NCBI RefSeq assembly: GCF_053078305.1
Contig: NZ_CP166879.1
Strand: one strand, 5' to 3'
DNA length: 64,000 nt
Part shown: positions 13,532 to 31,968 of the stretch, in pieces
Numbering within the stretch: position 1 is the first letter of the stretch
Layout of the letters: each line of letters opens with the position of its first letter
The notes under the pieces: generated by a model
Told to the model about the DNA's origin: nothing
What the model saw: the letters and a program-made list of their open reading frames with translations, nothing else
Databases searched by the model: none
Program-made: the position numbers and the translations under genes

Positions 13532-13604
13532 ACCGCTTCTGGCGACCGATCATGATAGCGCTGCTGTGTGCGGTACTGCTGTTACGGGGTGTCCTGTGGC
13601 TGCG

Positions 13605-14196: not shown

Positions 14197-14206
14197 GGAA
14201 AAAGGT

Positions 14207-14723: not shown

Positions 14724-15010
14724 GTGATTTCATTACTGAAGATCAGCGTCTGGTCATTCTGCGGTCGCTGGCAGATTACAACGGTGAACTGGGTGAATCC
14801 GTGCTCCAGGACTGTCTGGATGATTACGGCCACCGCGTGTCCCGCGACACCGTTCACACCCACATAGCCTGGCTTGCCGAGCAGGGACTGGTGCGCAAAC
14901 GCGTTCTGATTAACGGTTATTTCATCGCGGAACTGACCGGTCGTGGGCAGGATGTGGCGGAAGGCCGGGCCTGCGTTCCGGGTGTGAAGAAACCACGCGC
15001 AAGGGGGTAA
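14720..15010 (+). CDS. hypothetical protein (possible winged-helix)
   Basis: 96 aa ORF, start overlaps previous stop. Confidence 0.4.
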   Translation: MSDFITEDQRLVILRSLADYNGELGESVLQDCLDDYGHRVSRDTVHTHIAWLAEQGLVRKRVLINGYFIAELTGRGQDVAEGRACVPGVKKPRARG

Positions 15011-15012
15011 CG

Positions 15013-15594: not shown

Positions 15595-15604
15595 GAGGTG
15601 AATC

Positions 15605-15853
15605 ATGGCAACAGATAACCGCTCACTGATGATCTGTGCCCATCAGAAGGCATTCAGTCTTGCAACACAGTTACCTCCTGAAACCATAAAAGTGTGTCGT
15701 GAGTTGACTGAACTCTGCATTGCCGGGGAAATCTCCCTGAAACAACTGCATTCGCTGCTGGCAGAGGCTGTCACTGATGAATTGAGCAGCGTGGACGTGA
15801 TGACTGAAGAGCTTGAGTCCCGAATCAGGGGCATTCTGACAGGTAAAGCATGA
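15605..15853 (+). CDS. hypothetical protein, paralog of the small-terminase C-terminus
   Basis: 82 aa; C-terminus AVTDELSSVDVMTEELESRIRGILTGKA parallels AVTDELRGVDGMSEQIEFRIRQMLLGKA of the preceding gene. Confidence 0.4.
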   Translation: MATDNRSLMICAHQKAFSLATQLPPETIKVCRELTELCIAGEISLKQLHSLLAEAVTDELSSVDVMTEELESRIRGILTGKA

Positions 15854-17517
15854 TGAGCAAAGCCAAAGAAACGTCTCCTTCACTGATGCAAATGACGCCT
15901 CCCCGCAAAATTGATCTGGCCGGTGAAAAAGCCCTGCTGGGCGTGGATGTGCCGGACAGCCTTGATTTACCCGGTGATATGCCGGTGTTTCTGGATTATC
16001 AGGCCCGCTGGTTTGAGGATGAAAGTCAGGTCTGCATCGCGGAAAAATCCCGACGCACCGGGCTGACCTGGGCGGAAGCCGGGCGTAACGTCATTACCGC
16101 CGCAAAGCCTAAGCGTCGTGGTGGCCGTAATGTGTTTTATGTGGGGTCAAAGCAGGAGATGGCGCTGGAATATATTTCTGCCTGCGCCCTGTTCTCCCGT
16201 GCCTTTAACCAGCTGGCAGATGCTGATGTGTATGAGCAGACCTTCTGGGATCGGAATAAAAAAGAAGAAATTCTGACCTACATGATCCGCTTTCCGAACA
16301 GTGGATTCAAAATTCAGGCACTGTCTTCCCGTCCGTCAAACCTGCGCGGCCTTCAGGGGGATGTGGTGATTGATGAAGCCGCGTTCCACGAGTCACTGGA
16401 TGAGCTTCTCAAGGCGGCAATGGCGCTCACCATGTGGGGCGCGCGCGTGCGTATTATCTCCACGCATAACGGCGTCGATAATCTGTTTAATCAGTACATT
16501 CAGGAAGCCCGCGAGGGGCGCAAGGATTACAGCGTCCACCGCATAACCCTGGATGATGCCATTGCGGACGGGCTGTACCGTCGTATCTGTTATGTCACCG
16601 GCCGCGAATGGTCACCGGAAAGCGAGCAGAAGTGGCGTGATGATCTCTACAAAAACGCCCCGACCCGTGAGGATGCCGACGAGGAATACGGCTGTATCCC
16701 GAAAAAATCCGGCGGTGCCTATATTCCTCACGCGCTTATTGAAATGGCGATGCTCCGCGACATCCCGATTCTGACGTTTGAAGCCCCGGACGACTTCATC
16801 AGCCGTGCCGCATGGCTGCGTGAATCGGAGGTTTTAACCTGGTGTGAAGAACATTTAAAACCGCTTTTAGAGGCGTTAAATCCCCGTTCCCGCTTCAGCT
16901 TCGGGGAAGACTTTGCCCGCACCGGTGACCTCTCCTGCTTTGTGCTGCTGGAAATCACTGAATCCCTGGCAAAACGCGAGGTGTTTCGCGTGGAGCTGCG
17001 CAACCTGCCGTATGCCCAGCAGGAGCAGGTGATGATGTACATCCTGACCCGCGTTCCGGCGCTGGTCGGTGCGGCGTTCGACGCCACCGGTAACGGCGGC
17101 TATCTGGCCGAAGCCGCGCTGCTGGCCTTTGGCCCGGACATCATCGACTGCGTGATGTTATCGCCGAAGTGGTACGGCGAGTGGATGCCAAAACTGAAGG
17201 CCGAGTTTGAGGATCAGAATATCCTCGTCGCCCGCCATCAGACCACGCTTGATGATTTGCGCCATGTGAAGGTGGTGAACGGTATCCCGCAAATCGACAA
17301 GGGGCGTACGAAGGACCAGAACGCAACGGCTGTGAACGCCCGCCGCCATGGCGATTTTGCCGTGGCGCTCTGTATGGCAAACCGGGCGTCGTACATGGAG
17401 GGCTTCATCCTGGATGAATCAGCCTGTCAGGCGCTGCCGGAGCGGTCGCGGGCCATGGAGGGCGGTTATCGTGATGACGATGAGGCATATCATGAATTTG
17501 ATCGGGGGTGCTGGTAG
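15850..17517 (+). CDS. terminase large subunit
   Basis: 555 aa ORF at the Mu gp28 position. Confidence 0.8.
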   Translation: MMSKAKETSPSLMQMTPPRKIDLAGEKALLGVDVPDSLDLPGDMPVFLDYQARWFEDESQVCIAEKSRRTGLTWAEAGRNVITAAKPKRRGGRNVFYVGSKQEMALEYISACALFSRAFNQLADADVYEQTFWDRNKKEEILTYMIRFPNSGFKIQALSSRPSNLRGLQGDVVIDEAAFHESLDELLKAAMALTMWGARVRIISTHNGVDNLFNQYIQEAREGRKDYSVHRITLDDAIADGLYRRICYVTGREWSPESEQKWRDDLYKNAPTREDADEEYGCIPKKSGGAYIPHALIEMAMLRDIPILTFEAPDDFISRAAWLRESEVLTWCEEHLKPLLEALNPRSRFSFGEDFARTGDLSCFVLLEITESLAKREVFRVELRNLPYAQQEQVMMYILTRVPALVGAAFDATGNGGYLAEAALLAFGPDIIDCVMLSPKWYGEWMPKLKAEFEDQNILVARHQTTLDDLRHVKVVNGIPQIDKGRTKDQNATAVNARRHGDFAVALCMANRASYMEGFILDESACQALPERSRAMEGGYRDDDEAYHEFDRGCW

Positions 17518-19106
17518 TGGGACGTATAATTGATCTTGACGGAAAACCTTTCTCCTTTGACCCGGAGATGCAGAGTGCCGCGCTGGATATTCCGCAGATT
17601 GCCAGCCGTTATATTGAACATCCGGCCTCGGGTATCACCCCGAACCGGGCGGCGCAGTGCCTTCGCGGGGCTGAACGTGGCGATCTGATTGCCCAGTCCG
17701 ATCTGGCCGCTGACATTGAAGAAAAGGATACCCACCTTTTTGCAGAGCTGGGCAAGCGACGTCTTGCCATTCAGGGGGTGCCATGGAGTATTGAGCCGCC
17801 ACCGAACGCCAGCGCGAATGAGAAAAAGGACGCGGAAATGCTCGACGAATATCTGCATTCCGCCGACTGGTTTGATGCCATGCTGTTTGATGCCACCGAT
17901 GCCATCCTGAAGGGCTATTCCTGCATGGAGATTGAGCACGGGATGCTCGGTAAAATGCACATCATCCGCGCCATCCGCTGGCGTGACAGCGGGCATTTCT
18001 GCCTTAACCCGGATGATTTGAGCGAACTGCGGCTGCGTGACGGCAGCCATGCCGGGGTGGCGTTTCAGCCCTTTGGCTGGATAGTGCATCAGTCGCGTTC
18101 ACGCACTGGCTACGGTGGTGCGACGGGGCTTGTCAGAACGCTTATCTGGCCGTTCATTTTCAAAAACTATTCCGTGCGCGATCTGGCTGAATTTCTGGAG
18201 GTGTACGGCCTGCCGATGAAGGTCGGGAAATACCCGTCCGGGGCAACACCGGAGCAGAAAAGCGCCCTGATGCGGGCGGTGATGGATATCGGGCGACGTA
18301 CAGGCGGGATCATCCCTGCCGGGATGTCGCTGGAGTTTCAGGCAGCCGCGAACGGTCAGGCCGATCCGTTTGAAACCATGATTTCGTGGGGGGAGCGTTC
18401 CATCTCCAAAGCTATCCTCGGCGGCACGCTGACCACGGAAGCCGGAGACAAGGGCGCGCGTTCGCTGGGTGAAGTGCATAACGAGGTGCGCCGGGAAATC
18501 AGGGATTCTGATTTACGTCAGCTGGCCGCCACGCTGAACCGCGATCTGGTGTATCCGCTGTATGCCCTGAACACCGCCCACGCCATTGATATCCGTCGCC
18601 TGCCGCGTATCTGTTTCCAGACCAAAGAGCCGGGGGATATCACCAAAATCACCAGTGCGGTGATGCAGCTCAGTACGGGGATGGATATTCCAGATCCCTG
18701 GGTACGGGAGCAGACCGGTATTCCACAGCCAGCCCCCGGTGAAGCCATCTTCCGTGTCCGGCAGAGCAGTAATGAACCCGCGCAGATCAACAGGGAAACA
18801 CCGCCGGAAAAACAGGAAAAGACAGAGCAGACGGCGCTGTCAGCCCGAGTGCCGGAAGCGAAAAGCAGCCCCCGTGATGAACTGGACGACATGGGGGATG
18901 CGGTGCCTGCCCGCCGGTTACAGGAGGCCATCGACCCGCTACTGGAGCCGGTCATTGATGCCATCAGAACGCGGGGGCTGGCGGATGCGCTGGCAGACCT
19001 GCCTGCCCTTTACCGTGAAATGGATGATTCCCGCCTGATGACGCTGCTCAGTGATGCCATGTTTGCTGCGGAAATGAAGGGGATGCTGGATGGCTCAGGG
19101 GATTGA
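17508..19106 (+). CDS. portal protein (Mu gp29/H-like)
   Basis: 532 aa ORF following the large terminase. Confidence 0.8.
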   Translation: MLVVGRIIDLDGKPFSFDPEMQSAALDIPQIASRYIEHPASGITPNRAAQCLRGAERGDLIAQSDLAADIEEKDTHLFAELGKRRLAIQGVPWSIEPPPNASANEKKDAEMLDEYLHSADWFDAMLFDATDAILKGYSCMEIEHGMLGKMHIIRAIRWRDSGHFCLNPDDLSELRLRDGSHAGVAFQPFGWIVHQSRSRTGYGGATGLVRTLIWPFIFKNYSVRDLAEFLEVYGLPMKVGKYPSGATPEQKSALMRAVMDIGRRTGGIIPAGMSLEFQAAANGQADPFETMISWGERSISKAILGGTLTTEAGDKGARSLGEVHNEVRREIRDSDLRQLAATLNRDLVYPLYALNTAHAIDIRRLPRICFQTKEPGDITKITSAVMQLSTGMDIPDPWVREQTGIPQPAPGEAIFRVRQSSNEPAQINRETPPEKQEKTEQTALSARVPEAKSSPRDELDDMGDAVPARRLQEAIDPLLEPVIDAIRTRGLADALADLPALYREMDDSRLMTLLSDAMFAAEMKGMLDGSGD

Positions 19107-20415
19107 TTTAGGTTATGCCGCCACGCTTCCCTCAAAAGAGGCGGTGGCATACTTCCGCGCCAAAGGGGCGCATATCAGCTGGAACTGGTTCGAAACAGAC
19201 GCGGATGTTCATGCCCGTTCATTCACGGCGGCAAAAGTGGCACGCCTGGACGTACTGACCACACTACAGGCGGAAGTGCAGCGTGCTGTTGATGAGGGGA
19301 TTTCACAGAAAGCATTTATCCGCACACTGACACCCCGCCTGCAAAAGCTGGGATGGTGGGGAAAGCAGATTGTGGTGGACAGTGCCGGTAACGCGGAAGA
19401 AGTGCAGCTGGGCAGCCCCCGCCGTCTGGCGCTGATTTACAACGTGAACACCCGCGTGGCTTACAATGCCGGGCGTTACACGCAGATGATGAACAACACG
19501 GACACGCATCCGTTCTGGCAGTATGTAGCGGTGATGGACAGCCGCACCCGCCCGGCGCATTCCGCCCTTAACGGGCTGGTATTCCGCTATGACGATCCGT
19601 TCTGGAATACACACTACCCACCCAATGGCTGGAACTGCCGCTGCCGTGTCCGGCCATTGTCTCAGGCCCGTCTGGATGCAATGGGGTTATCCGTTTCATC
19701 CGGTCAGGATCATCTTTCCACCCGCAATGTTGAGGCTGGCGTGGATAAGCAGACCGGAGAAGTCAGAGAAATGCCGGTGACCACATATTCAGATGGCACC
19801 AGAACCATGACACCGGATGTGGGCTGGTCATATAACCCCGGTTCGGCGGCGTTCGGCACAGACCAGGCGCTGATCCGCAAGCTGATCGAAGTGAAAAGCC
19901 CGGCGTTACGGGAAATGGTGGTTCAGGAGATGAACAACAGCCCGGAGCGGCAGCTGGCGTTCCGCATCTGGGCAAAAAACATCATGAAAACCCGGCGAGG
20001 CGGTAACGATATCCGCACGCTGGGCTTTATGACCGAAAGTATTGCGCAGGCGGTGGAAAGCCGGACGGGAACGCCACCGGCCCGCCTGCTGGCGATGAGC
20101 GGTAAAAATGTGCTCCATGCGGACAGCGTGAAACATCAGAATGACGGTATCGCCCTGACGCCGGAGGATTTCGCGCAGCTTCCCGCCATGCTGGCTTCCC
20201 CCGATGCCGTGCTGTGGGATCATGTCCATCAGAACCTGCTTTACATCACTGAAACCCGTGACGGAACGGCAAAGATTGCCGTCAATGCGCCTTATGGTGT
20301 GAAGCGCCAGCCGGATAAGCTGGATGTGGTAATTAATGCTTACCGGGTAAATAAATTTGATATTGAAAAAGCAATAGAGGGCGGAAAGCTGGAACTACTG
20401 GAAGGTAAATTGTAA
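19090..20415 (+). CDS. Mu F-like head morphogenesis protein
   Basis: 441 aa ORF in the expected position after portal. Confidence 0.75.
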   Translation: MAQGIDLGYAATLPSKEAVAYFRAKGAHISWNWFETDADVHARSFTAAKVARLDVLTTLQAEVQRAVDEGISQKAFIRTLTPRLQKLGWWGKQIVVDSAGNAEEVQLGSPRRLALIYNVNTRVAYNAGRYTQMMNNTDTHPFWQYVAVMDSRTRPAHSALNGLVFRYDDPFWNTHYPPNGWNCRCRVRPLSQARLDAMGLSVSSGQDHLSTRNVEAGVDKQTGEVREMPVTTYSDGTRTMTPDVGWSYNPGSAAFGTDQALIRKLIEVKSPALREMVVQEMNNSPERQLAFRIWAKNIMKTRRGGNDIRTLGFMTESIAQAVESRTGTPPARLLAMSGKNVLHADSVKHQNDGIALTPEDFAQLPAMLASPDAVLWDHVHQNLLYITETRDGTAKIAVNAPYGVKRQPDKLDVVINAYRVNKFDIEKAIEGGKLELLEGKL

Positions 20416-20495
20416 GCCGGTGACGGGGGTCGAACCCGCATAAACATATGACCCCTGAGGGTTTATGCCGCTTTACCAGTTAAGAGTACACCGGC
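20416..20495 (-). ncRNA. tRNA-like element (acceptor stem and T-arm recognisable; anticodon arm not resolved)
   Basis: Minus strand reads GCCGGTG…GCGGG-TTCGACC-CCCGT-CACCGGC: 7 bp acceptor stem and GGTTCGA-type T-loop; an internal 8 bp helix GCATAAAC/GTTTATGC encloses CCTCAGGGG. No encoded CCA. Confidence 0.3.
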
Positions 20496-20533
20496 CTGTA
20501 TTTATTTTAATCAGATAGTTTTAAGGAGGCAAC

Positions 20534-21007
20534 ATGTCATCCATCGATGCAGCCGTGGTGGTGGACGTTGCGCGTCTCCAGCGGGTCTTTGCCCGGCTTC
20601 AGTTTGTGGGTGGTGGAAAAGACCTGGCCCGCAGTGTGGCGGCGAGTCTTCTGTCATCGTCAGAAATGGCGTTTGAACAGGAAAAAGAGCCGGACGGCGA
20701 ACGCTGGCATGACTGGTCAGATCCTTACCGCAAGTGGCGTACCCGTAAGGGATACATGCCCGGCAAAATCCTGACGCTGAACGGCGATCTGGCCCGACGC
20801 CTGACCACGGATTATGGCGACACCTGGGCGCTGATTGGATCAAATGAGCCTTATGCGGCCATTCATCAGTGGGGTGGCCTGCCCGGTATGCCACCGGGAC
20901 CGGCGGCCATTGGTGCACGTCCGTATATGGGCTTTGATCAGGTGGCAGAGCAGGAGATCATGGACGAAATCAGAAAACGCTTTAAAAAGGCCACAGAAAC
21001 GCCTTAA
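20534..21007 (+). CDS. Mu G-like virion morphogenesis protein
   Basis: 157 aa ORF between F and the protease/scaffold gene. Confidence 0.7.
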   Translation: MSSIDAAVVVDVARLQRVFARLQFVGGGKDLARSVAASLLSSSEMAFEQEKEPDGERWHDWSDPYRKWRTRKGYMPGKILTLNGDLARRLTTDYGDTWALIGSNEPYAAIHQWGGLPGMPPGPAAIGARPYMGFDQVAEQEIMDEIRKRFKKATETP

Positions 21008-21183
21008 TTGTTTAAGGTATGCAAATGCATTACCTTACCCCCTTCAGGCGCGTGTCGTGATTTTCTAACCTGTATTTAACGGGCTTTAAAATCTGCGTGA
21101 AGCGCCTTTGTATTTTTCCCCTGGAAGCACTTCCTGAAATCCCGCAAAACCCGCCCTGAAAATTCCCGGCTTATGCTGCCGGA

Positions 21184-22308
21184 ATGAAGACGAAAAACAC
21201 GCCCAAACTTGCTTATGCCATTCTGAATGCCATCAGCCTGTCCGCAGACGGGGACGGTGACTGGTGTCAGATCATGCCAGCCGGTCGGGTAAAGGCCCGT
21301 GACGGTCGCCCGGAAAAACCGGCTGAAGGCTGGCTGATTAACCGTGCGACCGTTGAGCGCATGGTATCCCGGGTTGTGGCGCTCAATCAGCCGGTAAAAA
21401 TTGACTACAACCACCAGACCCTGATTAAGGGGCATCAGGCACCGGCTGCCGGTTTTGTGATGGCCTCACCGGAGAATTTTCGCTTCAGTGAAGAGCGTGG
21501 CTTCGAGGTGCGCCCGAAGTGGAATCCTCCGGCCCTTGAACATCTGCGTAATAACGAATTCCCCTGGTTTTCACCGGTGATTGGCTATGACGAGAGCACC
21601 GGCGAACCTGTCGAACTTCGGATGCTGGCTATTACCGGTGACCCCGGTCTGACCGGCATGAATCCTGTCGCCGCGCTGTCGGCGGATGACCTTTATAACG
21701 CCTTAAACCCTCCTTTAAAGGATACCTCCATGAATGAGCAATTACGCCAGTTGCTGACGGCGCTCGGTCTGACCGTGGCTGACGGTGACGAATTTACGCC
21801 GGAGCTGGGCACGGCAGCGCTGTCTGCCCTCACCGGGATCAAAACCCGTGCGGATGCACACGACAACCTGAAAACACAGGTTGCCAGCCTGTCGGCAGAG
21901 CTGGAAACCGCAAAAGGCACACCGGCTGGCGGCAGTATTGATCTGACGAAATACGTGCCTGTTGAAACGTATAACGCCCTGCGTACCGAATACGTTGCGC
22001 TGTCGGCGCAGCACGGCAGCACCACGCTGGAGCAGGTGCTGGACAAGGCTGAATCCGAAGGGCGCATCTTCAAAAGCGAACGCGGCTATCTGGAACAACT
22101 GGGCGGGCAGATTGGCGTGGCGGCACTTTCTGCACAGCTTGACGCCCGCCAGCCGGTTGCGGCCCTGACCGGCCTTCAGACCGACACCGTGACCGTGCCG
22201 GATAAAAAGACTGCCACCGCTGTGCTGTCGGCTGAAGATATCGCGGCCGCCAAACTGCTGGGTAAAACCGAAGCCGAGTTCCTGAAAATGAAAGAGGAAA
22301 TGCAATAA
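21184..22308 (+). CDS. Mu I-like head protease/scaffold protein
   Basis: 374 aa ORF directly upstream of the major head gene. Confidence 0.75.
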   Translation: MKTKNTPKLAYAILNAISLSADGDGDWCQIMPAGRVKARDGRPEKPAEGWLINRATVERMVSRVVALNQPVKIDYNHQTLIKGHQAPAAGFVMASPENFRFSEERGFEVRPKWNPPALEHLRNNEFPWFSPVIGYDESTGEPVELRMLAITGDPGLTGMNPVAALSADDLYNALNPPLKDTSMNEQLRQLLTALGLTVADGDEFTPELGTAALSALTGIKTRADAHDNLKTQVASLSAELETAKGTPAGGSIDLTKYVPVETYNALRTEYVALSAQHGSTTLEQVLDKAESEGRIFKSERGYLEQLGGQIGVAALSAQLDARQPVAALTGLQTDTVTVPDKKTATAVLSAEDIAAAKLLGKTEAEFLKMKEEMQ

Positions 22309-23255
22309 TGCCTACCCCGATTACACCGGCGATGATCACCGCCCTGATGACGGGCTACCGTTCTGATTTTCAGGCCGGGATGTCCATGGCCCCGTCGCAG
22401 TACAAAAAAATTGCGATGACCGTGCCCTCCACATCGAAATCCAACACCTACGGCTGGCTGGGGCATGCGCCTCATTTTCGTGAGTGGATTGGTTCTCGTG
22501 TGATCCAGAAAATGAAAGCGCACGGTTATTCCATTGTAAACAAGACCTGGGAAGATACCGTCCCTGTTAATCGTGATGATTTTGAGGACGATAATCTCGG
22601 TATTTACTCGCCTTTATTTCAGGAGCTTGGTCGTGCCGCTGCTGTTCAGCCGGATGAGCTTGTATTTGCTGCTCTGCGTGATGGTCTGAAAAGTGCGTGT
22701 TACGACGGTCAGAACTTCTTTGATACCGAACACCCCGTCTACCCAAATGTGGATGGTACCGGTGATGTGGCGCTGGTCAGCAACATGTTTGTGGCAAAAA
22801 CCGGCTCTGTCGGTGCACAGGCAGATTACAGCGGACCGGCCTGGTATCTGCTCGACTGCTCCCGTGCAATAAAACCCATCATCTATCAGAGCCGCCGCAA
22901 GGTTGAACTGGTTGCACAGACAAAAATTGATGAAGGTCGCGCATTCACTGATAACGAGTTTGTGTTCGGTGCATCCGTTCGTCACAACGTGGGCTACGGC
23001 TTCTGGCAGATGGCCTACATGATGCAGTCACCGCTGACGCTGGATGCGCTGTGGCATGGCTGGTCCGCCATGCGTGAGTTTACCGCTGACGGTGGCCGCA
23101 AACTCGGCATCAAACCCACCCATATTGTTGTCCCCACCTCGCTGGAAAAACAGGCGGTGCAGCTGCTGGAGCGTGAACTGTTCGCAGACGGAAACGCAAC
23201 CGTCTCTAACGAGATGAAGGGCAAGCTGGAGCTGGTTGTCGCGGATTATCTGTAA
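22308..23255 (+). CDS. major head subunit (Mu T-like)
   Basis: 315 aa ORF, start overlaps the I stop. Confidence 0.8.
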   Translation: MPTPITPAMITALMTGYRSDFQAGMSMAPSQYKKIAMTVPSTSKSNTYGWLGHAPHFREWIGSRVIQKMKAHGYSIVNKTWEDTVPVNRDDFEDDNLGIYSPLFQELGRAAAVQPDELVFAALRDGLKSACYDGQNFFDTEHPVYPNVDGTGDVALVSNMFVAKTGSVGAQADYSGPAWYLLDCSRAIKPIIYQSRRKVELVAQTKIDEGRAFTDNEFVFGASVRHNVGYGFWQMAYMMQSPLTLDALWHGWSAMREFTADGGRKLGIKPTHIVVPTSLEKQAVQLLERELFADGNATVSNEMKGKLELVVADYL

Positions 23256-23298
23256 ATGGTGAGCCGGGCTTACGGCCCGGCCCCTGCGGAGGGCAAAT

Positions 23299-23730
23299 AT
23301 GAATGAACATCACACTGTGGCAGCAACAGATGATTCAGGTCTTCAGATCAGTGGTGACAATTCTGTCACGGTGCTGGCAGAAGTGCGTTGCAGTCGTTCG
23401 GCGTTTCGTCGTGCGGGGTTCCTGTTCACGCGTGGACGTCAGCAGGTTGAGGTCACCCCGGAGCAGCTTGCCCGACTGGAGGCGGAGCCATGCCTCACTG
23501 TGCGAATACTACAGACGTCTGCTGATGATGCGGGGAGCGTGGCGGGTGTGGTTCATGCAGTGGCCTGTACAGATTTAGCCGAAGCCGAAGCCGAAGCCGA
23601 AGCCGAAGCCGAAGCCGAAGCCGAAGCCGAAGCCGAAGCCGAAGCCGAAGCCGAAGCCGAAGCCGGACAGGATGCTCCCCGGAAAAAGACCGGTAACAAA
23701 GCGAAACAGGCGAAAAAGGCCCGCGCATGA
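23299..23730 (+). CDS. hypothetical head-region protein with (AE)14 repeat and basic C-terminal tail
   Basis: 143 aa; in-frame hexanucleotide repeat encodes alternating Ala-Glu, then PRKKTGNKAKQAKKARA. Confidence 0.5.
   Translation: MNEHHTVAATDDSGLQISGDNSVTVLAEVRCSRSAFRRAGFLFTRGRQQVEVTPEQLARLEAEPCLTVRILQTSADDAGSVAGVVHAVACTDLAEAEAEAEAEAEAEAEAEAEAEAEAEAEAGQDAPRKKTGNKAKQAKKARA
23581..23664. repeat. perfect tandem repeat (GAAGCC)x14
   Basis: Directly visible, 84 bp, in frame within the CDS at 23299-23730. Confidence 0.95.
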
Positions 23731-24146
23731 ATTACGCCACTGAAACCGATATGCGGGCGCGTTACCGCGAGGATTTGCTCAGGCCGTTACTGGCTGTGCC
23801 CCGTTCGGATGAGCCGGACACGCGCAAGCTGAACCGGGCGCTGACAGATGCGTCAGCCCTTATCGACAGCTATCTGTCCGCCCGTTACACGCTGCCGCTG
23901 GAGGTTATTCCGGCCGTTCTTGTTCAGCACTGTTGCGCGATTGCCTTTTATTACCTGTGCGATCAGCGAGCCTCCGATCAGGCGCGTGACCGTTACCGTG
24001 AAGCGCTGGCCTGGCTGAAAGATGTCATGAACGGCAATGTGCCGGTCGGTGTGGATACGAACGGTGCGGCCCCTGAATCCGGGGATTTACCACAGGTTCT
24101 GTCTGATGCAGCGGTATTCGGGCGCAACCAGAAGGGCTTCATATGA
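23727..24146 (+). CDS. head-tail joining protein (Mu gp36-like)
   Basis: 139 aa ORF in conserved position after the head genes. Confidence 0.55.
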   Translation: MNYATETDMRARYREDLLRPLLAVPRSDEPDTRKLNRALTDASALIDSYLSARYTLPLEVIPAVLVQHCCAIAFYYLCDQRASDQARDRYREALAWLKDVMNGNVPVGVDTNGAAPESGDLPQVLSDAAVFGRNQKGFI

Positions 24147-24703
24147 TTACGGAAACCGAACAGGCATACATCGCCCGTATCCGTGAGTATTTCGGGAATG
24201 AACTGGTGTCTGTTGACACGCATCCCGGCGACTGGAGCGACAGCGTACTGCGCACCATGCTGATTAACGCCCCGGCGATCTACGTTGCCTGGCTGGGTGC
24301 CGGTGAAGGCCGTACCCGTGGTCGTCTGGTCAGTCACTGGGTGTTCTACGTCATCGGCGACATGCTCAACGGGCGTGAGGCCAGCCGTCCCGGACTGTAT
24401 CAGATTGTGGCCCGGCTGATTGCCGTGCTTAACGGCTTCAGAACAGAAAAAACCTCACCGCTTTACTTTGAAAAGGCGGTCAACGGTTACACCGAAACCC
24501 AGGCGGACAGTGGTGCGGTGATGTATGCGCTTTATTTCTCCTGCGAGGAAATGATCGCGCCACTGACGGATATCAGCTCGCTGGACGACTTCCTGCGTCA
24601 TTACGAAACCTTTGTGGAGCCGCCCGGTACGCCGCCGTTTGAGGCACATATTGATTTGCCGGGGAACACGACAACGGCGGTCGAACCGCCGGAGGAACTG
24701 TAA
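24143..24703 (+). CDS. Mu gp37-like protein
   Basis: 186 aa ORF, overlapping start. Confidence 0.55.
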   Translation: MITETEQAYIARIREYFGNELVSVDTHPGDWSDSVLRTMLINAPAIYVAWLGAGEGRTRGRLVSHWVFYVIGDMLNGREASRPGLYQIVARLIAVLNGFRTEKTSPLYFEKAVNGYTETQADSGAVMYALYFSCEEMIAPLTDISSLDDFLRHYETFVEPPGTPPFEAHIDLPGNTTTAVEPPEEL

Positions 24704-24949
24704 ATGAAAACCATCTTTATCAAACCCGCGCCGGGACGCCTGATTCGTGATCCCGACACAATGCGCCCGCTGGCACAGGAGGGGGAGGAAAAGCCCTTCA
24801 CGCCGTTCTGGTGTCGGCGTCTTGATGACGGCGATGTCATTCAGGCTGAAAAAGCCGCTGAAGAGGCTCCGGCTGTATCTGCGGATGCAACGACTGCGAC
24901 AGAAAAACCGGTCGCCCAACCGGCATCCGATAAGGAGAAACCGCAATGA
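24704..24949 (+). CDS. hypothetical small protein
   Basis: 81 aa ORF upstream of sheath. Confidence 0.4.
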   Translation: MKTIFIKPAPGRLIRDPDTMRPLAQEGEEKPFTPFWCRRLDDGDVIQAEKAAEEAPAVSADATTATEKPVAQPASDKEKPQ

Positions 24950-26448
24950 TTAATTTTGACGGGATCGGTAATGACCGCCGTATACCGCTGATTGAGGTTG
25001 AGTTTAATAACTCCATGGCTGTCACCGGCACCCCGGCACAGCGTCAGTGTGTACTGCTGTTTGGTCAGGCGAGAATGAAAGAGAATGCCGTGGACGGTAC
25101 CGGTGTTCTGGATGTTCCGGTCAGGATCACCCGTGCGTCTCAGGCAACAGAACTCTGGGGGCGCGGCTCCATGATTGCCCTGATGGTGGCGGAATTTATC
25201 GCCATCAATCCTGATGCTGAACTGTATGCCATTGCTCAGGGGAATGGCACCGGACAGGCAACGGCTGCGGCCATGAATCTGACCGGAACGGTCACCCGTG
25301 ACGGGATTGTTTATGCCTGCGTGGGGGGGCGGCGTTATACACTCCCGGCACCAAAAGGTAAGAAAGGCAAAGAACTGACCGACGAGCTGGCCGCGCTGAT
25401 CAATGCCGATCCTGACGCGCCCTTCACGGCCTCCTCTGGTGCAGGAAGTGGTGATAATGGCGCAGGTCTGAAAGGGTCTCTGGGGATCACCGCCCGCTTT
25501 ACCGGTGAATGCTCCGTGCATGATGTGCGCCTGAACTATCACGACGGGGAAGCAACCCCGGAAGGAATACAGGTCGCTATAGCCTATCCGAAACAAAAAG
25601 CGGCTAACCCGGATATCACCCGAAGCGTGGCGGGTATGGGCGATCGCCAGTACAACTATGTCGTCATGCCCTATAAGGATGATGCAAACCTGAAAATCAT
25701 CAGTGATGAGCTTCTGAAACGCTGGGGACCGGCCAAAATGTCTGACGGCGTGCTGTGGCTGGCACATACCGGCACGTTTGGTGAGGTGCAGGCATTCGGG
25801 GCAAAACGCAATGATTTTCTGGCGACCTGCACATCCATTCCCAAAGCCCCTGAACCGGATTACCTCTGGGCCGCGGCGGTCTGCGCCACCTGTGCACCCT
25901 CTCTGGGAGCAGATCCTGCGCGTCCGCTTCAGACGCTGGCGCTTCCGTCACGCATGGCCCCGGCTCCGGCCGATCGTCTGACGCGTGAAGAGCGTAACAG
26001 TCTGCTGTGGGGAGGGATTGCCTCGGTCAGTGTGGCTGCCGGTGATGTGGTTCAGATCGAACGTCAGGTGACCATGTATCGCCAGAACGTGTACGGCGAA
26101 AGTGATCCCAGCTATCTGGATGTGGAAACCATCTACACCCTCTCCTGGCTGCGTTATTCCCTGCGTACTTTTATCACACAACGTTTTCCGCGCCATAAAC
26201 TGGCTGATGACGGGACGCCCGTTCGTGCCGGTCAGAATATCGTGACGCCGGAGATCATGAAGCTTCAGTTAATTTCGCTGGGTGAAGAGTGGGTGGAACT
26301 CGGGCTGGTCGAAAATCTGGACACCTTTAAAAAGAATCTGCTTGTGGAGCGTAATGCGTCAGATCGAAACCGTCTTGACGTGTTATGCACGCCGGATCTG
26401 GTTAACCAGTTCCGCTTCCTGGCAGCACAGATCCGTTTCATTTTGTGA
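24946..26448 (+). CDS. tail sheath protein
   Basis: 500 aa ORF followed by a ~120 aa tube candidate. Confidence 0.8.
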   Translation: MINFDGIGNDRRIPLIEVEFNNSMAVTGTPAQRQCVLLFGQARMKENAVDGTGVLDVPVRITRASQATELWGRGSMIALMVAEFIAINPDAELYAIAQGNGTGQATAAAMNLTGTVTRDGIVYACVGGRRYTLPAPKGKKGKELTDELAALINADPDAPFTASSGAGSGDNGAGLKGSLGITARFTGECSVHDVRLNYHDGEATPEGIQVAIAYPKQKAANPDITRSVAGMGDRQYNYVVMPYKDDANLKIISDELLKRWGPAKMSDGVLWLAHTGTFGEVQAFGAKRNDFLATCTSIPKAPEPDYLWAAAVCATCAPSLGADPARPLQTLALPSRMAPAPADRLTREERNSLLWGGIASVSVAAGDVVQIERQVTMYRQNVYGESDPSYLDVETIYTLSWLRYSLRTFITQRFPRHKLADDGTPVRAGQNIVTPEIMKLQLISLGEEWVELGLVENLDTFKKNLLVERNASDRNRLDVLCTPDLVNQFRFLAAQIRFIL

Positions 26449-26456
26449 GGTAACGC

Positions 26457-26822
26457 ATGAGCGGAAAACAGTATCAGGGCACGGCCACTATCCGTGTGAA
26501 CGGTCAGGAATACGAGACGCTTGAGGGGGCTACATTTTCTCCGTCAGGTTTTGAACGTGAAGTGGTGAAAGGCGCGAAAGTCTATGGTTACCGCCAGAAA
26601 CCACGTGAAGCGACGCTGGACTGCAAATTTCCGGCAGGCGGAGAAGGCTCACCAGCCGCTGATGAAATCAACAACTGGACTGCGGTCACCATCGAGTTTG
26701 TGGCGGATACCGGCGAAGTCCACATGATGACGAAGGCCTGGAGCAGTGAACCGGCCTCGCTTGACGGTGGCGGGGAGATCTCCGTGAAGTTCGCCAGCGC
26801 CTCCAGTACCCGTGTTCAGTGA
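26457..26822 (+). CDS. tail tube protein
   Basis: 121 aa ORF after the sheath. Confidence 0.7.
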   Translation: MSGKQYQGTATIRVNGQEYETLEGATFSPSGFEREVVKGAKVYGYRQKPREATLDCKFPAGGEGSPAADEINNWTAVTIEFVADTGEVHMMTKAWSSEPASLDGGGEISVKFASASSTRVQ

Positions 26823-27313
26823 TCAGGAAAAATAAAATGACCACACGTAAGAAAAAAACGGCAGTTTCCGATGCCGCCGTGATGGAGGCAATCCGGGAAG
26901 CACTTGAGGGGGCTGATCCACGCACTGCCGGGCTGACAGAGCAACTGGCAAAGGGATATGTGGATCTGCTTGATGGTCTGCCGTTTGGTGAGACCCGTGA
27001 ATATCGTGTCACGTTCCGGGAACTGACTGCGAAAGACAGTATTGACGCAGAAGCAGAAGCCGAGCGCGTGGTGGAGACAAACAATGGCCCGATGCTGATA
27101 GCGTCTCCGTCGTTACGCGGTGTTGCACTGCTGCGCCGTCAGATTGCCGCAGTGGGAGACATTGAGGGTCCGTTGTCACCCCGTCAGATTGGGCGGTTAA
27201 GCGAGCGCGATCTCTCCCGCCTGATGGCAGCGGTCAGCCTGCTGGATACCGCGCTTGCCGGAAAGCTGGCTGCTGACCGGGGGCGATCAGGCGCAGTGTC
27301 GGGATCAGATTGA
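26819..27313 (+). CDS. tail assembly chaperone-like protein
   Basis: 164 aa ORF between tube and tape measure. Confidence 0.5.
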   Translation: MIRKNKMTTRKKKTAVSDAAVMEAIREALEGADPRTAGLTEQLAKGYVDLLDGLPFGETREYRVTFRELTAKDSIDAEAEAERVVETNNGPMLIASPSLRGVALLRRQIAAVGDIEGPLSPRQIGRLSERDLSRLMAAVSLLDTALAGKLAADRGRSGAVSGSD

Positions 27314-27437
27314 AGAAGCGGCAATTATCCTGGGGATGGTGACAAAAAGCGGCCCGGAATGGGCGCTTAACCTCCCCCTGTCGCAACTTTACCGGCACTG
27401 CCGACAGACAGAAAAAATCATCAGAACGAAGCAGTAA
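27255..27437 (+). CDS. overlapping ORF downstream of chaperone (possible frameshift extension)
   Basis: 60 aa ORF in the +1 frame overlapping the chaperone 3' end and ending just before the tape measure start. Confidence 0.3.
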   Translation: MPESWLLTGGDQAQCRDQIEEAAIILGMVTKSGPEWALNLPLSQLYRHCRQTEKIIRTKQ

Positions 27438-27439
27438 GT

Positions 27440-29515
27440 ATGGCCCGAAATCTCAGAGCATCTCTGATAGTTGATTTGCTCGGCAATATCTCAGCCAAAT
27501 CCCGCCAGTGGTCTCAGGAGCTGGGGGCATTCTCACGCTCCGGCCAGGCGGGGCTGGGTGGTCTGGGAAATGCTGCCCGCCGTGCCGGGCAGGAAACAGA
27601 TGTACTCGGAAGCAGGATGCAGCGCACGCTGGCCGGGGTGCGGGGCAGTATCCGCCATGTCACTTCTGATTTTGACCGTCTTCAGGGCAGTATTACCGGC
27701 ACCATCGGGCGGATCAGCAATCTTTACGGAATGCTGGCCGGTGGTGCTGCTGTATATGGCTTTAACCGGGGATTTATTCGCCCGGCAGCGGAGATGGAAA
27801 CCTATATGATTCGCCTGAACTCCCTTTACAAAGGGGATCGGGCGAAAACGGATGATGTCCGCAGGTGGGCAATACAGAATGCGAAGGAAACCACCTGGGG
27901 GCTGGCTGGCGTCATGCAGGAATATACGTCCAGTCTGGGCTTTGGTATGAGTGACAGGGAGGCCCGAAATTTTGTCACCATGCTTCAGGATCAGGGTGCC
28001 GTGGGCGGCTGGTCACTGTCCGATGCACAGGGGGCATCCCTGCAACTGAAACAGATGTATGCAAGAGGCAGTATTCAGGCGGCGGATGCAAATATTCTTG
28101 CCACCTACGGCATTAATGCCTACCGCGTGCTGGCTGATCGTCTGGGTGTGGACCAGAAAGTGGTCAGAAAACTTGGTGAAAAAGGGCTGCTTGGGCCGGA
28201 CAGTATTCGCCTGTTATTTCAGACGCTGGCGGAACAGGCCAGGGGAGCACAAAAGGACGCAATGAATTCCTGGAGTGGCCTGACGGCCATGATGGGTGAC
28301 GTCTGGGACCAGTTTGCCCGGGATGTGATGGACAGTGGGCCATTTGAAAAACTGAAGGGTAATCTCAGGGGATTTCTTTCATGGGTTGACAGTGCCAAAT
28401 CTGATGGCAGTTACCATTCCCTGGCGGAAAGCACGGCATCAGCCATGAACCAGGGCTTTGAGTATGCCCGTGATGCAGTGACAGGGTTTTATCAGGCGAT
28501 CAGAAAGGTACGCGACACGCTTCAGGCTCTGCGGGATGCGGGCTATGGTGATGCGCTGGATCGCATTGGTCAGGGGGCACAGACTGCCGCGAAATACCTG
28601 CTGTACATGTATCTCGCCACCCGTGCCCTGAAAATGGCGCGGGCTGTCGGAACGGGGATTATACGTCCGGGTGCTGCATTGCTGGGATACGGATTATCAG
28701 CGGCGGCCTTCCTGACTTCACCTTTCCGGCGCTCTCCTCCGGCCGGAACACCACCAGGCACATCTCAGGGACGAGGGCAACGTTTTATGAACTTTCTTAC
28801 CGGGGTAAATCCGGCAGCCGTTCAGCCAGTGCTTGTAACAAACTGGCCCGCAGGAGGACTGTCCGGCACCGGCGCGACCGATACATCCTCAGGCGGACGT
28901 CAGGGACGGGGCCGCAGGAAACGCGGACCGGGGCGCGGAAGACCGGTCACGCCTCCCCTGCCACCGTCCCCTGTACCACCGTCGCCCTCTTCTGGTGGGT
29001 CAGGGTTCTGGGGGCGCATGATGGGGCGCGCCGGTGGGTTGCTTTCGTCTGCCGGTAACCGCATGGGACTGGGGCGTTTCTCCGGCTTTTTCCGCAGTGC
29101 CGGTGGACTGGCTGGACGGCTGGGTGGCGGTGCCCTGTGGGCTGGCGCGATGGCAGCCCCGGTTCTGCTGGATGGCAGCGCCAGTATCACAGACAAGGGA
29201 GAAGCGGTCGGCTCTCTTGCAGGCAGTATTGCCGGTGGTGCGCTGGGGGCGGCAGCCGGACCTGTGGGGATTGCCATTGGTTCTACGGTGGGCAGCTATC
29301 TCGGTAACTATCTGGGGGGGTGGCTGACTGAAGCCTGGCAGAAATTACGGGGCAGTGATAATGAAAGCAGTGGACAGGCGGTACAAAAAGCCTCTGCCCG
29401 TGTGGAGCTGGTTGCCCCGGAAGGGTGGCAGGCTCGCAGTATTGATATTGATGACACGTCCGGTCACGGACTGGATGTGAATGTCTGGAACGGAGGGAAT
29501 TATGGCCTCTGGTGA
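27440..29515 (+). CDS. tail tape measure protein
   Basis: 691 aa with Gly/Ala/Pro-rich low-complexity region, typical size and position. Confidence 0.8.
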   Translation: MARNLRASLIVDLLGNISAKSRQWSQELGAFSRSGQAGLGGLGNAARRAGQETDVLGSRMQRTLAGVRGSIRHVTSDFDRLQGSITGTIGRISNLYGMLAGGAAVYGFNRGFIRPAAEMETYMIRLNSLYKGDRAKTDDVRRWAIQNAKETTWGLAGVMQEYTSSLGFGMSDREARNFVTMLQDQGAVGGWSLSDAQGASLQLKQMYARGSIQAADANILATYGINAYRVLADRLGVDQKVVRKLGEKGLLGPDSIRLLFQTLAEQARGAQKDAMNSWSGLTAMMGDVWDQFARDVMDSGPFEKLKGNLRGFLSWVDSAKSDGSYHSLAESTASAMNQGFEYARDAVTGFYQAIRKVRDTLQALRDAGYGDALDRIGQGAQTAAKYLLYMYLATRALKMARAVGTGIIRPGAALLGYGLSAAAFLTSPFRRSPPAGTPPGTSQGRGQRFMNFLTGVNPAAVQPVLVTNWPAGGLSGTGATDTSSGGRQGRGRRKRGPGRGRPVTPPLPPSPVPPSPSSGGSGFWGRMMGRAGGLLSSAGNRMGLGRFSGFFRSAGGLAGRLGGGALWAGAMAAPVLLDGSASITDKGEAVGSLAGSIAGGALGAAAGPVGIAIGSTVGSYLGNYLGGWLTEAWQKLRGSDNESSGQAVQKASARVELVAPEGWQARSIDIDDTSGHGLDVNVWNGGNYGLW

Positions 29516-30851
29516 CGGTCGTGGTGCGTTCCGTGGTGTGCCGTTCCTCGTCTGGCGTGAGCAGCGCGAACGTGGCGGGCGAAACATTGTCCGTCGGGAA
29601 TATCCGTTACGGGAAACCGGTGGAGCAGACGATCTGGGACCTAAACTGGCTGAATTTACGTTCAGTGTACTTGTGATGGGGGATGATGTTCAGACGCAGC
29701 GAAATCGTCTGCGTGATGCCCTTCGTGCTCCCGGTGCCGGGGAGCTGCTTCACCCGGATTACGGCACGTTAAATGTGCTGATAAACAGCTTTGAAAGTCG
29801 TTATAACGCCGCTGAACAGGGCGTGGTTGAGTTCACCATTAATGTCACGCCGGTAAGTGATGATACCGCACCTGCTGTCACACAGGACACGGCCGCCATT
29901 CTGGAGCAGAAGAGTACCACCGCGCTCGGGCAGGTTTTTGAAACCCTGGAAGCGGGCTGGACGGTGATTTCTGACGGAATGCACGATGTCCAGGCAATGA
30001 CCGAAACCATCAGCGATAAGGTGTCCGCCCTGGAAAATGCCGTTTCCGGCATGGGGATTGTGCAGGATATCAGTGCCTTTACTGCCACGTTCACGGCGCT
30101 GAAAGGGAATGCCACGGCATTACTGACAGCACCTTCCCGCATGGCCTCATCTTTTGCGGGGCTTTTCAGTGCCCTGATCACCCTGCCATCGCTGCCGTCA
30201 CTGTCTTCAGGAGGCCTGAATACCCGGCCCGGTGGCAGTATCGGCCGGACGACATCCGCCGTCTATCAGGGAATGCCGCAACTGTACAGGACATTATCTT
30301 CCCTGCGTTACGTGCTGGATGAGCAGGATAATCCGCAGACTCTCATCGGTCTGACACCGGCAGCACAAAAGAATATTCGTCTGATACGGGCGGTAATGCA
30401 GAGTGCTGCCGTGGTGGCCCAGGCACAGACCGTGGGAAAACTGCTGGATCAGGTTCTCAGTCAGGAAACCCTGCCGGATAGTGACGCAGCCCACCGTACC
30501 TGGCCTGTCTGGCTGGAAAGTTCAGTCGATCTTCAGCGCATTAACCGTGACTTAAGCGAAGCGCTCGAACGGCAGGTGATGACACTGTCCGGGCAGGGGT
30601 ATACCGCCACGGCGCTGACGCTTCGTGATGCCAGACTGGCACTGACAGAGGATCTGAATACACGGGGAGTTCAGCTACCCGGTGCAACAGTAGTGACTGT
30701 ACGTACCACCGAGCCTGCACTGGTGACCCTGTACCGTGCCACCGGGAACAGTACCGGCTGGCAACGTTTTGTGCGCCGTAACGGTATTGTTGATCCGCTG
30801 TTCATTCCCGGAGGCCATTCAGTGGAGGTGATTAGTGAGCAGCAGGGTTGA
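29481..30851 (+). CDS. DNA circularisation protein (Mu N-like)
   Basis: 456 aa ORF following the tape measure. Confidence 0.7.
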   Translation: MSGTEGIMASGDGRGAFRGVPFLVWREQRERGGRNIVRREYPLRETGGADDLGPKLAEFTFSVLVMGDDVQTQRNRLRDALRAPGAGELLHPDYGTLNVLINSFESRYNAAEQGVVEFTINVTPVSDDTAPAVTQDTAAILEQKSTTALGQVFETLEAGWTVISDGMHDVQAMTETISDKVSALENAVSGMGIVQDISAFTATFTALKGNATALLTAPSRMASSFAGLFSALITLPSLPSLSSGGLNTRPGGSIGRTTSAVYQGMPQLYRTLSSLRYVLDEQDNPQTLIGLTPAAQKNIRLIRAVMQSAAVVAQAQTVGKLLDQVLSQETLPDSDAAHRTWPVWLESSVDLQRINRDLSEALERQVMTLSGQGYTATALTLRDARLALTEDLNTRGVQLPGATVVTVRTTEPALVTLYRATGNSTGWQRFVRRNGIVDPLFIPGGHSVEVISEQQG

Positions 30852-31968
30852 ACTGTATCTGGGCGGTGAGATTTTTTCCGGCTGGCTGACGGTGAGTGTT
30901 CGTCGCTCTCTTGAACATCTGGCGGGCTCCTTTGAACTGGGGGTAATGATGCCCGGTGTACGCCTTCCGTCATCCGTCCGTGCCGGTCAGTCTCTGGAAT
31001 TGCGCATTGACGGTCAGCCTGTGATCACCGGCTGGCTGGATCAGGTCCGGCAGCGCATCAGCGCCACGCGTTTTCAGATCACGCTCAGCGGACGGGATAA
31101 AACCGGTGACCTGGTGGACTGTTCAGCCATTCATCCGGGCAGCCAGTGGAGGAACCGTACGCTGGAGCACATTGCTTCAGATTTGTGTGCTCCGTTCGGG
31201 GTCACGGTGCGCTGGCAGGTAAATGATGCAACGGCAGCCCGGCCCTTTTCCACCTTCACACTGGAAAACTCAGAAACCGTGGCAGATGCGCTGACACGGG
31301 CCGCGAGACACAGAGGCGTCCTGGTAACCAGTAATGCCGCCGGTGAACTGGTTTTCACTCAGGCCGGCAGTCAGCGTGGCGACACGCTGACGCTGGGCGA
31401 AAATCTGCTGGATTTGGATCACAACGTGGATCACCGTCTGCGCCACAGTGAATACCGTGTACGGGGGCACGGGCGTGGTGGTGGTCATGCCGGGGATGCA
31501 CTGACAGCCGGAACGCTGGCCGCACCCGTTGGTACGGTGACAGACAGTGCCATCCACCGTTACAGACCGAAAATTGTGCTGGCGGATCATGCTGTTGATG
31601 CAGACGGTGCACGCCAGAGGGCTGTCCGGGAAATGCGCCGGGCGGTTGCCCGCTCTGTGCGCCTGACAGCCACCGTGCGGCACTGGTTTCGGGAGAACGG
31701 CCAGTTGTGGGATATCAACCTGCTGACGGCTGTCACGGCTCCCCGCACCGGAGTGGAAGAGCGTGATCTTCTTGTCTGTCAGGTGGAGTTTTCGCTGGAT
31801 GCAAATCACGGCGAAACCACCCGTCTGATTCTGGCACCCCGTGACGGCTTTATTGTTCCGGCAGAGCCGGACAGCCGGGGAAACAGCGGAAGCGGAAATG
31901 CGGGTGATGTGGACGCCTTCGTGCGGGCACAGATGAAAAAACAGGGGATTAAATTCAATGATGAATGA
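30835..31968 (+). CDS. tail/baseplate hub protein (Mu P-like)
   Basis: 377 aa ORF in conserved order. Confidence 0.7.
   Translation: MSSRVELYLGGEIFSGWLTVSVRRSLEHLAGSFELGVMMPGVRLPSSVRAGQSLELRIDGQPVITGWLDQVRQRISATRFQITLSGRDKTGDLVDCSAIHPGSQWRNRTLEHIASDLCAPFGVTVRWQVNDATAARPFSTFTLENSETVADALTRAARHRGVLVTSNAAGELVFTQAGSQRGDTLTLGENLLDLDHNVDHRLRHSEYRVRGHGRGGGHAGDALTAGTLAAPVGTVTDSAIHRYRPKIVLADHAVDADGARQRAVREMRRAVARSVRLTATVRHWFRENGQLWDINLLTAVTAPRTGVEERDLLVCQVEFSLDANHGETTRLILAPRDGFIVPAEPDSRGNSGSGNAGDVDAFVRAQMKKQGIKFNDE

Follow-up and report, generated by a model that had tools for sequence, protein, structure and literature searches.

Introduction

Pseudomonas phage JBD30, a siphovirus whose head module is of the Mu type, carries directly after its major capsid gene the gene for gp39, a minor capsid protein that was built into the electron cryo-microscopy (cryo-EM) density as trimers at the 3-fold and quasi-3-fold axes (PMC11445458). 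This protein adopts a Soc-like β-tadpole fold with residues 1-52 disordered; about half of the virions lacked it, and the authors of that work judged it dispensable (PMC11445458). Phage Mu and FluMu encode small proteins at the same genomic position, Mu gp35 and HI1506, and the protein family to which they belong (Pfam FluMu_N) is already known, though functionally unassigned. In this work we have analysed a 64,000-nucleotide stretch of contig NZ_CP166879.1 (assembly GCF_053078305.1; hereafter the window), in which an open reading frame (ORF) of this family contains a perfect in-frame hexanucleotide microsatellite, (GCCGAA)14, that encodes (Ala-Glu)14. We show that the number of units varies widely among related prophages through replication slippage, and we propose that the array sets the length of a disordered tether on what is probably a dispensable decoration protein of the capsid.

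Decoration proteins with flexible parts are familiar from other phages. The pb10 protein of phage T5 and the Hoc protein of phage T4 combine a domain that anchors them to the capsid with a flexible linker and a part exposed to the solvent, and both are dispensable for assembly. To our knowledge, neither of them has a hypervariable microsatellite linker. The protein described here would share with them, by inference, the same logic of anchor, linker and exposed module, but it has no sequence or fold relationship to either, and in pb10 and Hoc the exposed part consists of immunoglobulin-like domains instead of a basic peptide. Both are also cited as decoration proteins in the study of JBD30 (PMC11445458).

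A Perfect Hexanucleotide Array in Frame

Tandem Repeats Finder (TRF) reported in the 64-kb window an array at positions 23577-23665 with a period of 6, 14.8 copies, 100% matches and a score of 178, the runner-up array reaching a score of only 50. Read in the frame of the ORF, it gives GCC-GAA 14 times followed by a 15th GCC, that is L-(AE)14-A-G, and the C-terminal portion of the protein reads ...TDL-(AE)14-A-GQDAPRKKTGNKAKQAKKARA. The initial annotation of this DNA had described a perfect 84-bp (GAAGCC)14 repeat encoding (Ala-Glu)14, which both the TRF result and the reading frame confirm; its GAAGCC register (23581-23664) is as valid as the GCCGAA register used here. The interval that it gave, 23574-23670, does contain the array but is a loose bracket, wider than the repeat itself. 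The 12-mer GCCGAAGCCGAA, allowing at most one mismatch, occurs 16 times in the window versus 0.44 times expected from shuffled sequences, and none of 100 shuffles reached 16 occurrences.

The array is also crossed by ORFs of the reverse strand encoding (RL)n and (AS)n, which were discarded as mechanical by-products of the repeat; the plus-strand frame is preferred because the family match, the ribosome-binding site and the coupling to the next gene support it. A degenerate CGGCTT array at 56382-56417 (the reverse complement of AAGCCG), considered as a second copy, was rejected as well, since it is the spacer of the host tonB gene. This gene lies in the window at 55968-56738 on the minus strand; it has a Glu-Pro/Lys-Pro spacer and is unrelated to the prophage.

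Repeat Number Varies among Related Prophages

An 851-bp query around the locus retrieved 228 E. coli records, with full-length matches of 770-878 bp. The 12 E. coli loci that were fetched have 1, 2, 2, 7, 9, 12, 12, 13, 14, 16, 17 and 20 units; their frame is intact in every case, and the 11 arrays with at least two units are pure GCCGAA. Match lengths were then converted to copy number as 6-bp steps on two backbones, taking into account a 9-bp indel in the tail-coding sequence, and 86 complete E. coli genomes gave in this way all copy numbers between 1 and 17 as well as 20, with 8-9 the most frequent. Viral contigs range from 1 to ~17 units on backbones that are 85-88% identical in protein, and interruptions occur in some of these arrays (AEAEAETEAE..., AETV). 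Because the genomes sampled cluster phylogenetically, their allele distribution cannot be read as a record of selection.

The rate of change is apparent from closely related pairs. In two isolates from cattle, 116 and 121, the prophage occupies one shared site, the flanks of 10478 and 10280 nt show no mismatch, and the arrays have 14 and 13 units, respectively; a third genome, whose upstream 3.4-kb flank is identical to that of both isolates, has 12. Two other loci (L001 and L007) differ by 1 mismatch in 3400 nt, yet have 9 and 16 units, and five alleles were found on one identical 279-nt N-terminal haplotype. Copy number changes fast relative to point mutation at this locus, through strand slippage in replication that adds or removes whole GCCGAA units, with the protein gaining or losing Ala-Glu dipeptides; as only whole units come and go, the frame is never lost. 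This is what had been anticipated for a 6-bp unit, namely a change of length that does not break the frame, and the comparison of repeat number across related prophages shows it to be anything but invariant, with near-clonal isolates that differ by a single unit.

The 9-bp indel is independent of the repeat. It corresponds to a tandem duplication that is present in long-tail alleles (KAKQAKKARA), which make up ~38% of the sampled genomes, and absent from short-tail alleles (KAKQARA or KAEQARA); it defines the two backbones and alters the charge of the tail. An odd match length of 831 bp is due to the adjacent gp36 adaptor gene of E. coli OkiPb01679 (L011:3607-4027), which is annotated as frameshifted (a pseudogene) in an otherwise near-identical prophage.

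As a separate observation, many deposited proteins of the family are labelled 'partial' and end at or within the Ala-Glu run (...AEAEAE), among them P0063, P0069, P0070 and P0073, and the viral contigs L016 and L017 stop there too. Two other E. coli proteins are unusual in a different manner. P0079 starts in an alternative frame (23303-23578 in the window) and joins the gp35 frame part-way, resembling a frameshift variant, whereas P0086 has the first 41 residues of the ORF protein fused to unrelated PF10076 sequence and looks rearranged or chimeric.

Architecture of the Protein and of Its Family

The ORF matches Pfam PF17891 (FluMu_N) at residues 36-72 with 37.1 bits, against a gathering cut-off of 25.8 (E 2.6e-9); it belongs to PHROG 3622, listed there with function unknown, and its orthologs are named 'HI1506-related protein' in RefSeq. 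The nuclear magnetic resonance (NMR) structure of HI1506 (2OUT) aligns to the N-terminal part of the ORF with E 1e-4 when the sequence is searched alone and 1.2e-11 when the family profile is used, and in phage Mu the corresponding genomic position is taken by the homolog gp35. More distant relatives were collected through an exhaustive search of 1.84 billion representatives and then aligned (family alignment A1). This alignment delimits an N-domain of ~50 residues with a conserved pattern, C.R..YRRAG..F.RG...V.VT.EQLA.L.ADPCL.V, then an acidic, low-complexity linker rich in Ala, Pro and Ser, whose length and composition vary widely, and finally a canonical C-terminal domain of ~45 residues (...FT..G.PkV.avs..LG..vt.aqidaAl).

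In the window lineage the N-domain is followed by (AE)n and by a 21-residue tail rich in Lys and Arg. Using the family alignment, AlphaFold2 modelled residues 25-78 with a predicted local distance difference test (pLDDT) score of ~90, and residues 79-143, which comprise the repeat and the tail, with scores below 50. Alignment and model together place the repeat in the disordered, length-variable linker position of the family, directly after the N-domain. The C-domain, which is found in Mu gp35, P0085, P0088-P0095, P0099 and P0101, is absent from the window protein, and tblastn detected no copy of it elsewhere in the window. HI1506 and Mu gp35 resemble the window protein in their FluMu_N match, their genomic position and the succession of N-domain and unstructured linker, but they differ in ending with a helical C-domain of ~45 residues where the window protein has (AE)n and a basic tail; moreover, unlike in the window protein, the linkers of the other FluMu_N members that we examined are not microsatellites. 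The term linker, under which the Ala-Glu run was first described, is for this reason only half right: the run does join the N-domain to the 21-residue basic tail, but no second folded domain lies beyond it.

The 'LAEAG' of the Mu linker matches the 1-unit E. coli allele, 'DLAEAGQD', and hence the microsatellite plausibly grew from an ancestral GCC-GAA-GCC. Part of the architecture recurs further afield: the distant homologs L042, L043 and P0097 also have Lys-rich basic C-terminal tails, preceded in L043 by an acidic repeat of the EKIEKIEK type.

A Probable Decoration Protein of the Capsid

The JBD30 protein offers the main clue to what this family may do. An alignment of gp39 to the family gave in hhalign a probability of 91.5% and E 8.4e-7 over 44 columns that include the conserved core, and the A1 family profile retrieved chain B of PDB entry 8RKC in hmmsearch with E 2.5e-4, a chain that its depositors had named 'FluMu N-terminal domain-containing protein'. 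The gp39 sequence itself scores 22.5 bits against Pfam PF17891, just under the cut-off of 25.8, and P0115 from P. aeruginosa, 76% identical to gp39, carries a precomputed PF17891 match together with the 'HI1506-related' name from NCBI. Fold searches gave no confirmation of the link between the window family and gp39. On these data we consider, with moderate confidence, that the N-domain is homologous to the capsid-binding β-tadpole domain of gp39. The initial annotation had suggested a virion-associated or a DNA-binding protein, and it is the first of these options, virion association, that is supported by homology of the N-domain to a protein placed by cryo-EM.

Likeness between both proteins extends beyond this domain. 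The gp39 gene (8RKC/8RQE) also lies between a capsid gene of the Mu gpT type and an adaptor gene, its product shares the core RAGF.F...(S/T).EQL..LE..P.L.V, and the folded domain is small here too and is joined to a long extension, disordered, charged and of low complexity, whose length differs between close relatives. The extension of gp39 is however N-terminal, and it varies by duplication of a 33-residue unit instead of through a 6-bp microsatellite: the homologs compared for size (L014:4591-4932 and P0102-P0112) include P. aeruginosa proteins of 113 and 146 aa, which differ in a tandem duplication of this unit (PATEKPKDDTLPDSTD...) within the disordered N-terminal extension. One member of the gp39 group carries an (AP)5 run in that extension, and P0127 shows a reversed order, with a small helical domain, an acidic linker and then the capsid-binding domain. 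A further difference is the Cys67-Cys72 disulphide hairpin of gp39 (RRCRAGFC), absent from the window protein (FRRAGFLF), whose family conserves C31 and C65 in the alignment. The gp39 group and the window protein follow the same design principle.

On balance, we believe that a replication-slippage microsatellite determines here how long a disordered tether is on what is probably a dispensable decoration protein, and that its variation is probably tolerated rather than selected. According to this proposal, the N-domain would dock on the capsid as an accessory (minor capsid) module in the manner of JBD30 gp39, and (AE)n would form a disordered polyanionic tether holding the basic tip, with its 8 Lys/Arg and 1 Asp, off the capsid surface. 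Copy number would then determine both the length and the charge of the tether; on each of the ~400 subunits of a T=7 head, an increase from 1 to 20 units would shift the charge by ~19. The length variation would be mainly tolerated, as a nearly neutral trait, and not a programmed switch, given that the repeat forms an unstructured spacer in a weakly constrained and probably dispensable protein, that pure arrays with a broad allele range are the product of neutral stepwise slippage, and that the JBD30 homolog was judged dispensable. The ratio of non-synonymous to synonymous polymorphism (pN/pS) between the window and its most divergent locus is 0.77 for the ORF and 0.52 for its core, versus 0.07-0.24 for the protease, capsid, adaptor and sheath genes, and the ORF protein appears in this light weakly constrained. 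Since constraint is weak and substitutions are few, the protein-coding status of the ORF rests on conservation in the family and not on this ratio.

Several points weigh against such a role. The pN/pS value of the ORF is based on only ~24 substitutions. Mu is the closest characterised myovirus relative, and its 2025 cryo-EM study, at 3.3-3.5 Å, listed gp35 as a probable structural protein but did not resolve it anywhere, and found the stabilisation between capsomers to be independent of cement proteins (PMC11915804). In GenBank entry AF083977, Mu gp35 is labelled 'head-to-tail connector complex protein', with PMID 29767456 as the reference given in the entry, and a gp35/gp39 homolog is not reported in the main text of the proteomic studies of SuMu and PaMx73 virions.

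Alternative Explanations

One alternative places the protein at the portal or the neck, as a connector-associated or head-completion factor whose basic tail might, for example, hold or plug the packaged DNA, the repeat being just a spacer. The AF083977 label points in this direction, as do the position of the gene, adjoining and probably translationally coupled to the adaptor gene, and a tail that may bind DNA; the authors of the Mu structure also list gp35 as a possible additional connector-related protein (PMC11915804). We nevertheless regard this location as unlikely, because the portal-adaptor and terminator-tail regions of Mu were resolved at 3.4-3.5 Å and only gp29, gp36 and gp37 were found in them (PMC11915804), and because the sole homolog that has been located experimentally, JBD30 gp39, decorates the capsid shell rather than the neck (PMC11445458).

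A second alternative keeps the protein on the capsid but sees in the array an adaptive locus of the contingency type, maintained by selection since the length and charge of the tether at ~400 capsid sites would alter the behaviour of the virion, for example how far the basic tip reaches, how readily particles aggregate or attach to mucus or cell surfaces, or what charge their surface bears, so that the phage population would always hold several variants. Arrays that are pure and long on several divergent backbones, a wide and continuous range of alleles, the recurrence in distant homologs of an acidic spacer followed by a basic tip, and an active prophage lineage would all fit this idea. Purity and a broad range of alleles are however equally expected from neutral stepwise slippage, a 6-bp unit provides no on/off switch, the host protein is weakly constrained and its JBD30 homolog was judged dispensable, and the clustered sample of genomes makes the allele distribution no guide to selection; adaptive maintenance is in our opinion also unlikely. 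Its most specific form, a selected mutator device by which an active phage keeps making virions with varied Ala-Glu tethers on ~400 subunits, each tether with a net charge between about -1 and -20 and a basic tip at its end, seems quite unlikely. If true, such a device would tune the surface charge of the capsid, its colloidal behaviour or, within the gut, how well it adheres to mucus or cell surfaces, and would be a slippage-based counterpart, for the head, of the diversity generators of tail fibres.

Decidedly unlikely, in turn, is a non-structural protein that acts outside the virion and binds DNA or RNA during late development through its N-domain and basic tail. The ortholog ECs_4975 is indeed annotated as 'DNA processing protein', though no experimental basis for this annotation was found in the literature searched. 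The NMR work on HI1506 reportedly described positive surface patches on both domains and a weak similarity to RNA-binding folds. A protein outside the particle would also agree with gp35 not being seen in Mu virions (PMC11915804) and with the main text on the SuMu and PaMx73 proteomes. Conversely, the gene lies within the head-neck structural block, 14 acidic dipeptides beside the basic tail would oppose binding, and gp39 of JBD30 is a structural component of the capsid (PMC11445458). It is the Mu cryo-EM study, the AF083977 label and the SuMu and PaMx73 proteomics that keep the connector and the nucleic-acid-binding readings alive.

Finally, the view that the differences in copy number are errors of sequencing or repeat assembly, to which short-read assemblies breaking at the array (many 'partial' proteins and two viral contigs ending inside it) might lend some credit, is effectively refuted, as all counts come from complete genomes and their steps are exact multiples of 6 bp, two sequencings of strain 97-3250 gave the same match length, clonal sets share alleles (the three FRIK strains, and strains 113/116/133 versus 117/121/141), and single long reads easily span the longest array, of ~120 bp.

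The Prophage Setting

The features of the locus and its surroundings are listed in Table 1. The original description of the repeat, inside a small ORF flanked by the major head gene and a head-tail joining gene, is fully borne out by the Pfam matches, which follow the order Mu-like protease I, gpT, FluMu_N ORF, Gp36, Gp37, DUF2635, tail sheath and tail tube; the succession of gpT, FluMu_N ORF and Gp36 is common to the window, phage Mu and Sp18. The TGA of the ORF overlaps the ATG of the adaptor gene (ATGA), and this overlap suggests translational coupling between both genes. On the upstream side, a hairpin between the capsid stop and the ORF start, together with a terminator predicted at the equivalent position of phage Mu, suggests that transcription is attenuated after the major capsid gene, although the hairpin was not called by the terminator scan and its folding z-score is only -1.5.

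Table 1. Coordinates of the microsatellite, its host ORF and related features in the window.
Feature	Position	Strand	Description	Evidence
In-frame hexanucleotide microsatellite	23578..23661 (84 bp)	+	(GCCGAA)14, encoding (Ala-Glu)14	Perfect periodicity over 23577-23665
Host ORF	23299..23730	+	143 aa, Mu gp35 / HI1506-related (FluMu_N) family	Pfam PF17891, PHROG 3622, RefSeq name
N-domain	23371..23532	+	aa 25-78, conserved and folded, strand-strand-helix-strand	Homology to HI1506 N-domain and, probably, to the JBD30 gp39 capsid-binding domain
C-terminal tail	23662..23727	+	A-GQDAPRKKTGNKAKQAKKARA, 8 Lys/Arg and 1 Asp, in place of the ~45-aa C-domain	
Tandem duplication of 9 bp	23701..23720	+	GCGAAAAAG, 2.2 copies, in the basic tail	TRF
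Shine-Dalgarno-like motif	23288..23293	+	GGAGGG, 5 nt 5' of the ATG at 23299	Direct sequence reading
GC-rich hairpin	23263..23281	+	8-bp stem, no T-run, between capsid stop and ORF start	
Major capsid gene	22308..23255	+	Mu gpT type, directly upstream of the ORF	Pfam PF10124, E 1e-117
Head-tail adaptor gene	23727..24146	+	Mu gp36 type (Phage_Mu_Gp36)	Pfam
Mu-like prophage	~2444..41780	+	Sp18 type, contains the locus	blastn of Sakai Sp18 versus the window

The prophage is of the type of Sp18 from E. coli O157:H7 Sakai, where ECs_4975, with 8 units, is the ortholog of the ORF. Sp18 is a predicted intact prophage with efficient packaging of its DNA (PMC2669165), and Mu-like prophages occupy differing chromosomal sites in different strains (PMC7430833), which indicates that the lineage is alive rather than a remnant in decay. 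Some single genomes among the retrieved E. coli records contain several Mu-like copies, with matches at up to 4 places. In blastn comparisons, three stretches of the window found no match in Sp18 (2530-3872, 38066-39571 and 39859-40426), corresponding to the left-end regulatory/immunity region and to portions of the right-end accessory region; the window phage and Sp18 are thus distinct phages, related in a mosaic fashion. A segment of 152 bp is inverted between both (36384-36535 in the window, 32367-32518 in Sp18) close to the tail-fibre and DNA-invertase region, a match consistent with the inverted repeats of a host-range segment that can invert and was captured in opposite orientation.

A tRNA-like element was also observed at 20415-20495 on the minus strand, antisense in the gap between the F-like head morphogenesis and the G-like genes. 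The Rfam tRNA model gives it 31.4 bits (gathering 29, E 9e-4), and the Prokaryotic Genome Annotation Pipeline places a 'tRNA-OTHER' at the same site in many relatives (as in L001:315-394), whereas ARAGORN called no tRNA in the window or in L001. Its T-arm-like sequence GGGGGTCGAACCCGC is conserved, and the remainder diverges between the window and its relatives.

Comparison with Other Variable Repeats

With a short tandem unit and a copy number that varies from 1 to 20 between related genomes, the array is a coding variable-number tandem repeat (VNTR). It resembles the coding VNTRs of E. coli used in multiple-locus VNTR analysis, and TonB and TolA, in being a short in-frame repeat of strain-variable copy number that forms a low-complexity spacer, but TonB and TolA are envelope proteins of the host, whereas the gene in the window belongs to a structural module of a phage. 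Furthermore, TonB is stiffened by the proline of its Glu-Pro/Lys-Pro repeats, and the window repeat, Ala-Glu, has no proline, so it does not belong to the TonB/TolA type of spacer; NCBIfam matches to that type were compositional only (E 0.025 or weaker, far below the cut-offs) and were rejected. With the contingency loci of Haemophilus, Neisseria and others the array has in common a hypermutable simple repeat, a probably surface-exposed product and rapid change among near-clonal isolates. In contrast to those loci, its unit length is a multiple of three, expression is never turned off and only length changes, in a graded way; given that slippage cannot shift the frame, the array falls outside the classical phase-variation switches.

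The literature searched contained no reference to this repeat locus, either as part of a typing scheme or otherwise. Against that background three aspects appear to be new: the polymorphism of 1 to 20 units, the lineage-specific replacement of the C-domain by (AE)n and a basic tail, and the explicit connection of Mu gp35, HI1506 and ECs_4975 to the decoration protein of JBD30. The array adds a coding VNTR in a member of an otherwise known family.

Concluding Remarks

In practical terms, the many 'partial' proteins of the family, together with the two viral contigs that end inside the array, indicate that short-read assemblies break at this repeat, which should be taken as a warning when they are used. 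The locus can be easily assayed through sizing by polymerase chain reaction, and could sharpen the typing of strains and prophages. It constitutes a clean natural coding microsatellite that outpaces point mutation in prophages of Shiga-toxin-producing E. coli. At the level of the family, the homology proposed here would tie Mu gp35, HI1506 and ECs_4975 to a capsid-decoration protein of experimentally determined location, and points to a common build in which a disordered tether, whose length would be free to change, connects the capsid-binding domain with a terminal module. If repeat length does affect the properties of the virion, this would represent a new route for the diversification of the surface of phage heads.

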